Of a DNA stretch of 10,970 nt, positions 270 through 7,494 are shown in pieces. Below the pieces are notes generated by a model. That model was given only the letters and a program-made list of their open reading frames with translations. It was not told the DNA's origin and did not search any database. The stretch is from an uncultured bacterium (GTDB lineage Bacteria > CAIJMQ01): positions 1-10,970 of the forward strand of contig CAZNJA010000046.1 in assembly GCA_964573245.1 (NCBI GenBank). The letters are read 5' to 3'. Position numbers and translations under genes: made by a program. Numbering within the stretch: the stretch's first letter is position 1; each line of letters begins with the position of its first letter.

Positions 270-722
270 TCACTTCCTCAACCACGGGAAAATAGTTTCT
301 GCTTTTGTATTGAAAGTGCAGTCTGGAATGATCCAATCCTTCTCCGTTTTGTAACATACAAAACTTGTGAACACAGGACCTTTCTCAAAATTCATCACGA
401 GATACACTATCTTAGTGGATGTGGACAGCTCTCTAATTTGAGCAATCTCGTAAGACTTGTAGGATCCATAGTAACTTTCTATCTGCTTGAATATAGCTAC
501 TTGGCTTGTAGCTTGTTTCTCGTTCTCAAGGGGACTCCCTTTCAGCCAAGCCTTCATCGCAGCGTTAGCTCCACTAGCTTTATATGCATCTAATCCCACA
601 AGAACTATCTTCGGAATAGTCGGACTTGCATTTTCCTCAGCAGCCGTAGTCCAACGCGGGATTGCACAAGTTGCTACCAAGAGCAGAACCACCAGACAAC
701 AAATCTTAATTGACACTCTCAC
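270..722 (-). CDS. Hypothetical exported protein, 150 aa
   Basis: GTG start with GGAGG Shine-Dalgarno just upstream on the - strand; basic N-terminus, hydrophobic stretch and TAA-E-like cleavage site; candidate sigma70 promoter upstream. Family not recognised. Confidence 0.75.
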   Translation of the reverse strand: MRVSIKICCLVVLLLVATCAIPRWTTAAEENASPTIPKIVLVGLDAYKASGANAAMKAWLKGSPLENEKQATSQVAIFKQIESYYGSYKSYEIAQIRELSTSTKIVYLVMNFEKGPVFTSFVCYKTEKDWIIPDCTFNTKAETIFPWLRK

Positions 723-819: not shown

Positions 820-878
820 TTATATATGCAAGGGAAGGGCAGATTTGATAAGATTGGGTTTATAAAAGACGGTTAGCG

Positions 879-915
879 TAAATCCCGTTGATGTTGGTAA
901 TATCTACGGGATAAA
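879..915. repeat. 29-bp imperfect palindrome flanked by TAAA direct repeats
   Basis: TAAA-TCCCGTTGATGTTGGTAATATCTACGGGA-TAAA. It is absent from the homologous arm at 1251-1289, which has a single TAAA. Confidence 0.75.
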
Positions 916-931
916 GATAAGACGGTTTTAG

Positions 932-976
932 GTCCGATGCTCCGACGTTATGTCGGAGAGCGGACTCCTTCGGAGT
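932..976. repeat. Compound GC-rich hairpin (REP-like)
   Basis: GTCCG (932-936)/CGGAC (961-965) encloses CTCCGAC (940-946)/GTCGGAG (952-958), followed by ACTCC-TTC-GGAGT (964-976). Confidence 0.65.
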
Positions 977-1041
977 TTGCGGGGAATAAAAATCTTTTAA
1001 CGAACACCGAAAACCGCTAACCGAACACCGAAAGGTTATTT

Positions 1042-1254
1042 ATGTGTTTAGCGTTACCGATGAAAGTTGTGAAAATAGATAGCTCCGGCGGAGTTGTTGA
1101 AATAGGCAAAGTCAAGATGCAGGTTAATTTGGAGCTTCTTGATAATGTTAAAGTCGGAGAATATGTAATCGTTCATGCCGGCTTTGCGATACAGAAAGTG
1201 GACCCGAAAGAAGCAAAAGAAACGATTGAAATTTTGAAGGAAATGGCGAGATAA
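1042..1254 (+). CDS. hypC: Hydrogenase maturation chaperone HypC/HupF
   Basis: MCLALP N-terminus with Cys2 and VGEYVIVHAGFAI motif; 70 aa. Confidence 0.97.
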   Translation: MCLALPMKVVKIDSSGGVVEIGKVKMQVNLELLDNVKVGEYVIVHAGFAIQKVDPKEAKETIEILKEMAR

Positions 1255-1297
1255 AAAACGGTTATCGTAAAGATAAAACGGGTTTCGGTTATCGGAG
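1251..1297. repeat. Left (G/T-rich) arm flanking the four-helix-bundle gene
   Basis: Contains CGGTTATCG (1259-1267) and CGGGTTTCGGTTATCGG (1279-1295). 1284-1295 is a perfect 12-bp reverse complement of 1704-1715. Confidence 0.8.
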
Positions 1298-1304
1298 AAA
1301 CAAG

Positions 1305-1667
1305 ATGAATACTATAAAAAGTTATAAAGATTTAGAAGTGTGGAATAAAGGTATTGAATTAGTAAAGCAGGTTTATTTAAGTACGAAGAAATTTCCAAAA
1401 GAAGAAATATATGGTTTGACTAATCAAATGAGAAGGTCGTCGGTATCTATCCCTTCCAATATTGCTGAAGGAAAAATGAGACAGCATACTAATGAATATG
1501 TTCAATTCTTGTATGTAGCACTTGGTTCGTGCGGGGAATTGGATACCCAGTTAATTATTGCTGAACAATTGGGATATATTTCTAAACAAGAAGCATCAAG
1601 TTTTACTGATGAGATCGACCATATTTCACGAATGATAAGGAATCTTATCAAAACCATAAGAAAATGA
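1305..1667 (+). CDS. Four-helix-bundle protein (23S rRNA intervening-sequence protein / bAvd-like family)
   Basis: SYKDLEVW, FPKEEIYGLTNQMRRSSVSIPSNIAEG and FLYVALGSCGELDTQL are typical family motifs; 120 aa; GGAG SD at 1294-1297. Confidence 0.93.
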   Translation: MNTIKSYKDLEVWNKGIELVKQVYLSTKKFPKEEIYGLTNQMRRSSVSIPSNIAEGKMRQHTNEYVQFLYVALGSCGELDTQLIIAEQLGYISKQEASSFTDEIDHISRMIRNLIKTIRK

Positions 1668-1688
1668 ATCATTTATTATTGTCGTTTT

Positions 1689-1723
1689 TGCGAAAACCGA
1701 TAACCGATAACCGAACACCGAGC
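1689..1723. repeat. Right (A/C-rich) heptamer arm flanking the four-helix-bundle gene
   Basis: TGCGAAA ACCGATA ACCGATA ACCGAAC ACCGAGC; ends 7 nt before the hypD ATG; near-copy of 1008-1033. Confidence 0.85.
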
Positions 1724-1730
1724 TGTTAAA

Positions 1731-2825
1731 ATGAAGTATATAGACGAATTCCGAAACCCTGAACTAACGAAAAAGCTTATTGCAAAGATAAGCGGGATGG
1801 TTTCAGATTACAAGAAAGACATAATACTAATGGAAGTATGCGGAACGCATACTGTAGCCATTTCTCGTGCCGGTTTGAGGAAACTTTTTCCGTCAAATCT
1901 CAAACTGCTTTCAGGGCCGGGATGTCCTGTCTGTGTAACGCCTAATAATTATCTTGATAGGGCAATTGCCTACTGCCGAAGAAATGATGTCATCTTAGTT
2001 ACCTTTGGCGATATGATGAGAGTTCCAGGTTCAACTTCTTCTTTGGAAAAAGAAAAGAGTAGGGGTGGTGATGTGCGTGTTGTTTATTCGCCGATTGATG
2101 CTTTGAAGATTGCGAAGGATAATCCGAAGAAGAAAATAATATTTCTCGGGGTCGGGTTTGAGACGACTTCTCCGACTATTGCCGCAACTATTAAAACCGC
2201 AGAAGACCAGAATATAAAGCACTTTTTTGTTTATTCAGGGCATAAGATTATGCCTCCCGCAATGAAAGCGCTTGTTGCTGATAAAGAAGTCCACATTAAT
2301 GGATTTATATGTCCCGGACATGTAAGCACTATTATCGGCTCTGTCCCTTATGAATTCATACCTGAAGAATATAATATCCCCTGTGTTATTGTAGGGTTTG
2401 AGCCGCTTGATATCGTTGAAGGTGTTTATATGCTCGTGAAGCAGATTATTGATAAAGAAAAACCGAGCGTACAGATTCAATATACCCGTTCGGTAAAAAG
2501 AGAAGGAAATCCCAAAGCGCTTGCGCTTATGGGCAAAGTATTTGAACGGGAAGATTCAAATTGGCGGGGATTGGGAATGATTCCCGACAGTGGATTAAAG
2601 ATAAGGAAAGAGTTTTCGGCTTTTGATGCTCTTAAGAATATAGAAGTTGAAGTAGAGCCGACAAAGGAAAACAAACAGTGTATATGCGGTGAGGTTTTAA
2701 GAGGAGTGGAGAGCCCGCTATCATGTAAACTCTTCAAAAAAGCATGCACGCCCGAAAACCCAATCGGTGCCTGTATGGTTTCTTCGGAAGGAACTTGTGC
2801 GGCGTATTATAAGTATGGAGAATGA
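1731..2825 (+). CDS. hypD: Hydrogenase maturation protein HypD
   Basis: MEVCGTHT, GPGCPVC, GFETT and PGHVS motifs; C-terminal Fe-S cysteines ending CMVSSEGTCAAYY. Confidence 0.98.
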   Translation: MKYIDEFRNPELTKKLIAKISGMVSDYKKDIILMEVCGTHTVAISRAGLRKLFPSNLKLLSGPGCPVCVTPNNYLDRAIAYCRRNDVILVTFGDMMRVPGSTSSLEKEKSRGGDVRVVYSPIDALKIAKDNPKKKIIFLGVGFETTSPTIAATIKTAEDQNIKHFFVYSGHKIMPPAMKALVADKEVHINGFICPGHVSTIIGSVPYEFIPEEYNIPCVIVGFEPLDIVEGVYMLVKQIIDKEKPSVQIQYTRSVKREGNPKALALMGKVFEREDSNWRGLGMIPDSGLKIRKEFSAFDALKNIEVEVEPTKENKQCICGEVLRGVESPLSCKLFKKACTPENPIGACMVSSEGTCAAYYKYGE

Positions 2826-6808: not shown

Positions 6809-7408
6809 ATGTTGAAAAGATTTTTATTTTTTTTATTGGTAATTTGCTTATTTGCGGGTTGTTTTGCAGATACTTCGTCAAATGCAACAAACGAAGAGCA
6901 AGATAATATCCCCATACTTTTAAAAAAACCCGAAAAGTGGGGAGATGCTCCAAATTTTACAGCAGTTAGAGTAGGGGGTGGAGATTTTATGCTTTCTGCG
7001 TTAAAAGGAAAAGTTGTTTTGCTTAGTTTTTGGTCTGTTGATTGTCCTGCTTGTAAAATGCAGATACCTGTTTTAGGGCAACTTTATAAAAAATATAATA
7101 GGGAAAAATTAGAGATTGTAGGCGTTTGCTTGAGCCCCGAGACAGCAGTTCAACGTTTTACAAAATCAGTGGAAATGAATTATATTTTGGCATTACTCAA
7201 TCAGGATATGGCGAATAAATACGGAAGAGATCTGCGATTTATTCCCTTTACTTTGGTGATTGATCAACAAGGTAATATTTACCAAAAACATGTCGGTTTA
7301 GCAGATGCTGACGTATTAGAGAAAGAAATTAAAGAACTCTTGGAAAAAACAGATAAAAGTGTTAAATTACCAAACACCAAGAAGCAAGATACAAACAATA
7401 ATCAATGA
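6809..7408 (+). CDS. TlpA/ResA-family thiol-disulfide oxidoreductase, probable lipoprotein
   Basis: Lipobox LFAGC; APNF and LKGKVVLLSFWSVDCPAC; cis-Pro IPFTLVID; ccdA adjacent. Confidence 0.9.
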   Translation: MLKRFLFFLLVICLFAGCFADTSSNATNEEQDNIPILLKKPEKWGDAPNFTAVRVGGGDFMLSALKGKVVLLSFWSVDCPACKMQIPVLGQLYKKYNREKLEIVGVCLSPETAVQRFTKSVEMNYILALLNQDMANKYGRDLRFIPFTLVIDQQGNIYQKHVGLADADVLEKEIKELLEKTDKSVKLPNTKKQDTNNNQ

Positions 7409-7494
7409 CCAATAACCAATCGCCAAACAGAATCAAGTATTCAAAAGAACAATTGGAGTTTGTTTGGTTATCGTATCTTGTATCTTGGTTATTG
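7368..7494. repeat. 7-nt-periodic inverted arm pair with no ORF between the arms
   Basis: CAA at 7371/7378/7385/7392 then 7396/7403/7410/7417/7424; TTG at 7453/7460 then 7464/(TCG 7471)/7478/7485/7492. CAATAACCAA (7410-7419) complements TTGGTTATTG (7485-7494); CAAGATACA (7385-7393) complements TGTATCTTG (7479-7487). Confidence 0.8.

Follow-up and report, generated by a model that had tools for sequence, protein, structure and literature searches.

Two inverted repeats flank hypC at this locus, one without a gene between its arms and the other enclosing a small gene. What is the gene-less element in front of hypC, and how is it related to its gene-bearing neighbour? The window, by which we mean the whole 10,970-nt stretch of DNA analysed here, is contig C46 of a draft genome (G000; 1.46 Mb, 110 contigs, 38% G+C, 93% complete). 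In a single-protein search, the nearest named relative of the small gene at 1305-1667 was found in a Candidatus Omnitrophota genome assembled from a metagenome. Contigs from public DNA runs matched 500-1056 and 844-1245 of the window without differences; the source sample itself may be among these runs. In four DNA runs no contig joined across the gene-less element or the gene-bearing cassette, a result of little weight as the contigs are short and their depth is about 3-6. The features of the window are listed below, with related genomes designated G001, G003 and G004.

1-210: tail of hypF.
270-722, minus strand: ORF of unknown function, divergent from hypC.
841-857, plus strand: conserved motif AGATTTGATAAGATTGG, the left boundary of the insert; found in G000, G001, G003 and G004.
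858-1041, plus strand: the full insert as defined against G004; a gene-less hairpin of heptamer arrays within the presumed hypC leader.
862-882, plus strand: left arm, part one, with unit CGGTTAG; 870-878 pairs with 1015-1023.
883-911, plus strand: nested hairpin 1 (TCCCGT...ACGGGA), which splits the left arm; no second copy in the genome.
912-933, plus strand: left arm, part two, with the AAAGATAAGA motif followed by unit CGGTTTT; 923-933 pairs with 1006-1016.
934-994, plus strand: loop, consisting of a nested palindromic repeat of a different family.
995-1033, plus strand: right arm, four units (CGAACAC CGAAAAC CGCTAAC CGAACAC CG); Tandem Repeats Finder (TRF) period 7, 4.7 copies.
1042-1254, plus strand: hypC (PF01455, E = 2.1e-26).
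1251-1300, plus strand: left arm of the loaded (gene-bearing) cassette; holds the TAAAGATAAAA motif and is near-identical in the G001 copy.
1305-1667, plus strand: four-helix-bundle gene of the 23S rRNA intervening-sequence protein family (PF05635, E = 3.2e-41).
1668-1728, plus strand: conserved 3' segment and right arm of the loaded cassette (CGAAAAC CGATAAC CGATAAC CGAACAC CG).
1731-2825, plus strand: hypD (PF01924, E = 3e-153).
Downstream of hypD: an FKBP-type isomerase gene, hypA, hypE and others.
7396-7487: a further pair of heptamer arrays, built from units of other families: CAATAAC at 7396-7426 and GTATCTT at 7473-7487 (TRF).

The two arrays at 7396-7487 fill the spacer between an AhpC/TSA-like gene and a DsbD-like gene.

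The arms of both elements beside hypC are tandem arrays of 7-base units, TCGGTTA on the left (CGG plus four bases) and TAACCGA on the right (four bases plus CCG). The units read here were TAACCGA, AAACCGA, ACACCGA and CTAACCG. The right arm of the gene-less element stops 11 nt before the hypC ATG. In the loaded cassette, the first left-arm unit begins 4 nt past the hypC stop codon and the right arm stops 10 nt before the hypD ATG. Within the outer stem of the gene-less element, 923-933 and 1006-1016 form a nested inner pairing of 11 nt (91%). RNA of 855-1041 was predicted to fold at -64.5 kcal/mol, compared with -46.75 +/- 4.17 for shuffled sequences (z = -4.26), and 0/200 shuffles were as stable. 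The stem of 870-878 with 1015-1023 was present in the best fold. The loaded copy also closed via its arms in the predicted RNA fold (z = -2.92). The core of the loop at 934-994 was found on seven other contigs, for example C70 (97.6% of 41 nt), with several matches on C14.

The first-pass annotation of this DNA had described the space between the arms as free of genes. Inspection of all six frames bore this out, with no ORF of at least 40 aa within 862-1033. A 10-mer in the loop, TGCGGGGAAT at 978-987, is identical to 1530-1539 inside the PF05635 ORF, where it covers codons of the conserved GSCGEL stretch. We estimate that chance would give about 0.05 matches of this kind, and the identity does not continue into the flanks. 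The 10-mer could be what remains of a lost gene, or a chance identity. Over 700-1800, Rfam returned no family at E up to 1 and a terminator scan found no G+C-rich stem with a T-run of the kind that marks an intrinsic terminator. A promoter scan of the same region gave nothing in the element and one promoter-like minus-strand site inside the PF05635 ORF.

The two elements had been presented as sister copies, with a compensatory base change between them. The underlying alignments were reproduced: 862-882 matched 1251-1271 at 90% of 21 nt, 912-933 matched 1268-1289 at 86% of 22 nt and the right-arm repeat (995-1038 with 1685-1728) reached 82% over 44 nt. Recounted by hand, the left arms agreed at 34/39 positions, made up of 19/21 and 15/18. 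Two hairpins had been removed to obtain this alignment, of which only that at 883-911 needs to go; the second, at 934-994, lies in the loop between the arms. The sister relation itself was not supported, since better matches to the loaded left arm lie on contigs C49 (97% of 34 nt) and C30 (100% of 20 nt), compared with 90% of 21 nt for 862-882.

The two 9-nt complementary pairs on which the compensatory change was built (870-878 with 1015-1023, and 1259-1267 with 1705-1713) are exact, and 1259-1267 is also complementary to 1698-1706. The resulting G-C versus T-A swap had been taken as a sign of selection on pairing, with covariation among further copies as the check. We compared the variable four bases of left and right units across 13 family elements, permuting right arms among elements, and found no covariation at the level of units. 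The within-element arm overlap was 11, and 3835 of 5000 permutations reached 11. Unit variants form a small pool (TTAT, TTTT, TGTT, TTTG and TTAG), and in three other elements, those of C6, C36 and C38, the rare TTAG unit is found in a single arm. An element's own arms were no richer in shared variants than the arms of different elements, and the swap thus carries no weight. What does hold is that paired arms stay complementary in their unit family, a pattern that arm copying or gene conversion would explain as well as selection would. The element at 862-1033 and its relatives are more than chance as a family, whereas the single swap alone is not.

The same annotation had suggested a search of the genome for further arm copies, and these proved to lie on many contigs. 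As read from BLAST and inspection, the unit family comprises 26 sites in G000: one loaded, 11 gene-less two-armed hairpins and approximately 14 one-sided arrays, a few of which may be chance. With a loaded unit also present at another locus in G001, the claim that loaded and empty forms both exist was supported. Arrays of CGG or CCG with at least four units in G000 numbered nine at period 7, one at period 9 and none at the other periods among 4-8, 10 and 11. Canonical copies (on C49, on C30, both copies in the window and the G001 copy) share an asymmetric plan, in which an A-rich start is followed by CGGTTATCG, TAAAGATAAAA, two or three units, a short loop and then TTTGCGAAAACCG leading into four right-arm units. 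The left arm bears an off-centre AAAGATAAAA motif. The hairpin architecture is common to the copies on C49, C30 and C15 and in G001.

Hairpins of the same family at G000:C49:4755-4860 and C39:9177-9226 lie between tRNA genes, as judged by eye. If the flanking genes are indeed tRNAs, these hairpins would belong to tRNA precursor transcripts. A five-unit CGGTTAT array at G000:C9:34522-34555 lies inside a long open frame, according to crude gene calls.

Heptamer arrays in this genome extend well past the CGG/CCG family. Intergenic TRF arrays with a score of at least 30 numbered 160 at period 7 in G000, against 6-22 at each of periods 6 and 8-13. They gave 74 distinct consensus units in a handful of families, among them AT-rich, CTAGATA, AACCGAT and AAGTATT. 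Single-linkage clustering of the unit consensuses put 159 of 163 arrays in one group, and families were therefore assigned by eye. Counting clusters of CGGTT/AACCG units was uninformative, as the 95 clusters were mostly coding. Over all families, 20 adjacent array pairs stood in inverted orientation; the first null threshold for such pairs was inflated by shared families, and the count was repeated with lower thresholds.

The genome-wide placement counts all depend on crude gene calls. Arrays occupied 103/870 co-directional, 10/103 convergent and 11/114 divergent spacers, or 10-12% of each type. Their edges lay within 15 nt of a stop codon in 61/161 cases and within 15 nt of a start codon in 40/155. 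Some arrays bracket the housekeeping genes nusB, der and trmD. Neighbouring spacers shared a family in 13 of 78 cases, compared with 136 of 1472 random pairs.

Next to hypD, the loaded cassette offered a comparison with a second genome. The product of 1305-1667 matched PDB entry 2gsc (E = 5.6e-26). The structures of two relatives, 2gsc and 2rld, contain five chains each. A cassette in G001 aligned with window positions 1251-1728, from the first left-arm unit to the end of the right arm and nothing beyond. It lies between mnmE and an acyltransferase gene, a different locus from the hypC|hypD junction occupied in G000. As the alignment is limited to arm, ORF and arm, the arms and the gene behave as one relocated unit. 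The two ORFs are identical at 320/363 nt and 108/121 aa (dS 0.58, dN/dS 0.09), and the left-arm start and 3' segment are almost unchanged, with 1668-1728 conserved save for a 3-nt gap. Judged from this comparison of coding sequences, the PF05635 protein is under purifying selection. In G001 (locus L030, G001:C11) the ORF module lies between 11-nt direct repeats, GTTTTTGCGAA, at approximately 1455-1480 and 1855-1870. A complete small hairpin precedes this module, an arrangement suggestive of insertion of the gene where a right arm begins.

Orthologous junctions were then compared, with HypD used to locate the hyp locus in related genomes. G004, a member of the same family with a HypD 88% identical (locus L008), carries neither insert. 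Its hypC and hypD overlap in ATGA, and in front of hypC the conserved motif AGATTTGATAAGATTG is followed by 7 nt and then the ATG. Both copies in the window are thus inserts relative to G004, and no clear target-site duplication was seen against the bare G004 junctions. G001 and G003, of the same genus as G000, have gene-less hairpins at both hyp junctions, built from units other than those of G000: G001 uses the heptamer GGTAATT, and G003 uses GGTTAATAAN, a unit some 10 nt long. Across the two junctions in these three species, left-by-right arm scores were 9-19 within a genome and 5-8.5 between genomes. Within each of the three genomes both hyp junctions use one unit family, and the families differ between genomes. 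Between mnmE and the acyltransferase gene, G000 has a gene-less hairpin of the CTAGATA type and G001 has the loaded CGGTTAT-type cassette. Hairpins are gained, lost and replaced at gene junctions.

Two further arrangements were seen at hyp loci. The hypD gene of G003 contains an extra 60 nt or so (locus L027, G003:C63, reverse strand, approximately 2058-2119 of the reversed locus). This insert, a double-hairpin palindrome, is in frame and leaves 398 aa open with no stop. The distant genome G012 (locus L013, G012:C18, approximately 730-1255) has a PF05635 gene, containing one in-frame TAG, immediately before hypC, at the junction that the gene-less element occupies in the window. Heptamer arrays of its own flank this gene, with GAAAATN on one side and ACGATTA on the other.

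The association between PF05635 genes and heptamer arrays was assessed within G000, in its relatives and across phyla. G000 has six PF05635 genes, each with its own unit family. When all 1255 genes were ranked by inverted flank similarity, five of the six came 13th, 14th, 15th, 27th and 37th and the remaining one 1053rd. A match-based score was used for this ranking in place of RNAduplex energy, which was too noisy (PF05635 genes at ranks 53-1107 of 1255). In relatives, 14 of 23 PF05635 loci scored above all shifted controls. Among 76 usable loci from many phyla, 44 lay above the 95th percentile of cross-locus scores and 26 above the 99th, and lag 7 was the sole periodicity detected, in 25 flanks. 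PF05635 genes are bracketed by inverted heptamer arrays across phyla.

Array density was surveyed by counting period-7, -14 and -21 arrays with a score of at least 36 in G000 and in 33-126 kb from each of 24 other genomes. Of the 12 genomes that carry PF05635, G000 among them, 8 reached at least 6 arrays per 100 kb; of the 13 that lack it, none did. We treat this association as a lead and not a test because the genomes are partly kin. Among carriers with low density, G018 (four genes) and G025 (fragmentary gene matches) each had 2.0 arrays per 100 kb and G037 had 2.5. G003, with five PF05635 genes, had no heptamer arrays in 100 kb, and its hyp hairpins use units of about 10 nt. The strict pattern (AACCGNN)x3, sought in 41 genomes, occurred seven times in G000 and at most twice in each of five others, giving no support for family size tracking the cognate gene; G001, which carries the same cassette, had one occurrence. 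Below 55% identity, protein identity did not predict arm similarity (Spearman 0.07, p = 0.14). The link between PF05635 and the arrays is loose. We know of no catalytic activity for PF05635.

We also considered whether the family acts as DNA or RNA. In 21 of 28 cassettes the arms aligned well enough for mispairs to be counted. In sense orientation these gave 664 Watson-Crick pairs, 60 G:U-type pairs, 35 A:C-type pairs and 172 other mispairs. The modest excess of G:U over A:C hints that the RNA strand matters, but biased mutation could also produce it. The orientation of the AAAGATAAAA motif, on the sense strand of the neighbouring genes in 5/5 intergenic copies of the family, is a hint in the same direction. 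RNase III, sought as PF14622, was found in 0/9 genomes of the class (G000-G008; 64-96% complete) and in 29/32 others. PF00636 was found in 0/4 genomes of the genus, themselves incomplete. As RNase III was not found in any of these nine genomes, excision as in rRNA intervening sequences is doubtful here, and cutting of the stem by this enzyme is unlikely in this lineage. If such stems form, they are handled by something else or persist.

Three known systems resemble this one in part. One is the ORF-bearing intervening sequence (IVS) of 23S rRNA, in which complementary termini make a stem whose loop contains a PF05635/S23p gene. In a paper on Coxiella burnetii (PMC4990558), the helix-45 IVS carries tandem GACAGAT heptamers beside the S23p ORF, in numbers that vary by strain. 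RNase III cuts within the stem there, as it excises rRNA intervening sequences, and the paper considers whether the IVS is selfish or was once mobile. The ends of 862-1033 are likewise complementary and pair as a stem. By contrast, the element itself has no ORF, the PF05635 ORF being in its neighbour at 1305-1667, and both elements of the window lie at mRNA gene junctions (ORF|hypC and hypC|hypD) and not in a 23S rRNA helix. Their arms are long arrays on both sides, and the excising RNase III was not found in the nine genomes of the class described above.

The TAACTGA and Nostoc repeats are likewise made of degenerate tandem 7-base units that lie between genes. Such units often stop just short of a start codon, as the right arms before hypC and hypD do; genome-wide in G000, 40 of 155 array edges are this close (15 nt) to a start and 61 of 161 to a stop. 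In MacGregor 2015 (PMC4679880), intergenic TAACTGA direct repeats before start codons are described in Beggiatoaceae, cyanobacteria and Bacteroidetes, with one inverted case; that text does not contain the words intervening, four helix or S23. A preprint on the Nostoc heptamer repeats calls the heptamer-binding protein unidentified (bioRxiv 10.1101/2022.06.06.494920). Those repeats are direct arrays, whereas here the arrays form inverted hairpin-forming pairs in many unit families and bracket PF05635 genes. The present unit, TAACCGA, differs from TAACTGA by one base.

REPIN-RAYT systems (PMC3337134, PMC3116915) consist of dispersed intergenic non-autonomous hairpins with a low-copy gene flanked by the repeats and mostly vertical inheritance. 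Dispersed intergenic inverted-repeat hairpins are present here as well, 11 of them gene-less in this family. The differences are that the flanked gene encodes a 120-aa four-helix bundle (PF05635) and not a Y1 (HUH) transposase, and that the arms are tandem 7-base arrays of variable length in place of a fixed palindrome. A comparison with MITEs found no transposase and no clear duplication relative to G004, with the GTTTTTGCGAA direct repeats present in the G001 copy. In the library searched, no literature linked heptamer arrays in general to PF05635; the Coxiella paper (PMC4990558) notes heptameric repeats within its one IVS. A RAYT-like transposase was tried as a candidate partner and rejected, as the sole PF01797 match in G000, a weak one (C12:23931-24167, 32.7 bits), has no flanking arrays.

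Our preferred explanation, which taken as a whole we hold to have slightly better than an even chance of being right, is that 862-1033 is a gene-less member of a dispersed hairpin family, forming a gene-and-satellite system with the PF05635 cassettes. Its two arms are inverted arrays of a degenerate 7-base unit, with small palindromes of other repeat families nested inside, and the same unit family forms the arms round the PF05635 gene at 1251-1728. The gene-less hairpins would be non-autonomous partners of the gene-bearing cassettes. By analogy with REPINs and their RAYT gene, one gene would then go with a population of satellite hairpins, and the PF05635 protein may supply, or join, a function that makes or keeps them. 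The element is probably transcribed with hypC and would fold as an imperfect RNA stem on the sense strand. Against this explanation stand the lack of a visible target-site duplication, of joining contigs in the four DNA runs and of unit-level covariation, as well as a protein family with no known catalytic activity and the loose link between PF05635 genes and arrays. The spread of arrays over all spacer types and beside housekeeping genes also fits neutral filling of spacers.

Several rival explanations draw on the same observations. The null of the first-pass annotation, in which the arms were simply duplicated locally and one substitution arose by chance on each side, is suggested by two copies that lie 390 nt apart on the same strand and by a swap that is not significant. 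It is nevertheless contradicted by the dispersed copies, as the 26 family sites lie on many contigs, C49 and C30 hold closer relatives of the loaded left arm and the cassette recurs at a different locus in G001; we consider it highly improbable. A broader account without movement or selection is that the arrays grew in place through slippage turnover, arm-to-arm copying or gene conversion, and that PF05635 genes merely land or stay there. This agrees with the free variation of unit number and sequence, with the single unit family at both hyp junctions of each genome and its difference between the three genomes, with the sharing of families between neighbouring spacers somewhat above random, and with the absence of unit-level covariation over 13 elements. 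It fits poorly with a left arm, ORF and right arm common to two different loci as one block, and with the recurrence at unlinked sites of stretches outside the repeats, namely the TAAAGATAAAA motif and the TTTGCGAAAACCG sequence that leads into the right arm. Nor does slippage alone explain why dense arrays were found only where PF05635 genes are present. We judge growth in place to be quite unlikely.

The other alternative is that these are regulatory repeats of the host, the right arm serving as a protein-binding leader array and the left arm as an anti-sequence that masks it, both kept for hyp expression or transcript stability. The proximity of TAACCGA to TAACTGA, whose repeats have been proposed to control translation, points this way, as does the position of the right arms just before the hypC and hypD starts, a placement also seen at start codons genome-wide (40/155) and described in MacGregor 2015 (PMC4679880). 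The G:U excess over A:C (60 vs 35) is in keeping with a role for the transcript, and with no RNase III found, regulatory stems would persist. Yet G004 has the same hyp genes and neither junction with an element, and a fixed regulator would have had to change together with the unit families, which differ at the same junction among species of the genus. Convergent spacers are filled as often as co-directional ones, and array edges abutting stop codons exceed those abutting starts. Host regulation is an unlikely explanation. The most likely reading remains the gene-and-satellite system.

The S23p/PF05635 family, ORF-bearing rRNA intervening sequences and the abundant heptamer repeats of some bacteria have been left unexplained for decades. 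Arms built from arrays of one unit family will match in any case, and one compensatory pair cannot count as evidence that structure is selected. The locus sets the gene-bearing and gene-less forms of one hairpin family side by side. Together with junctions that are bare or differently filled in related genomes, and with a relocated cassette, this makes the gene-and-satellite hypothesis directly testable. A wider proposal, which we put forward tentatively as a possibility, is that PF05635 proteins are the missing partner of bacterial heptamer repeats. Each gene would lie in arms of its own unit family and would maintain or spread gene-less hairpins, in the manner of REPIN-RAYT systems but with no recognisable transposase. 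In that case 23S rRNA intervening sequences, TAACTGA-type repeats and gene-less hairpins such as the one in front of hypC may all be parts of one system.
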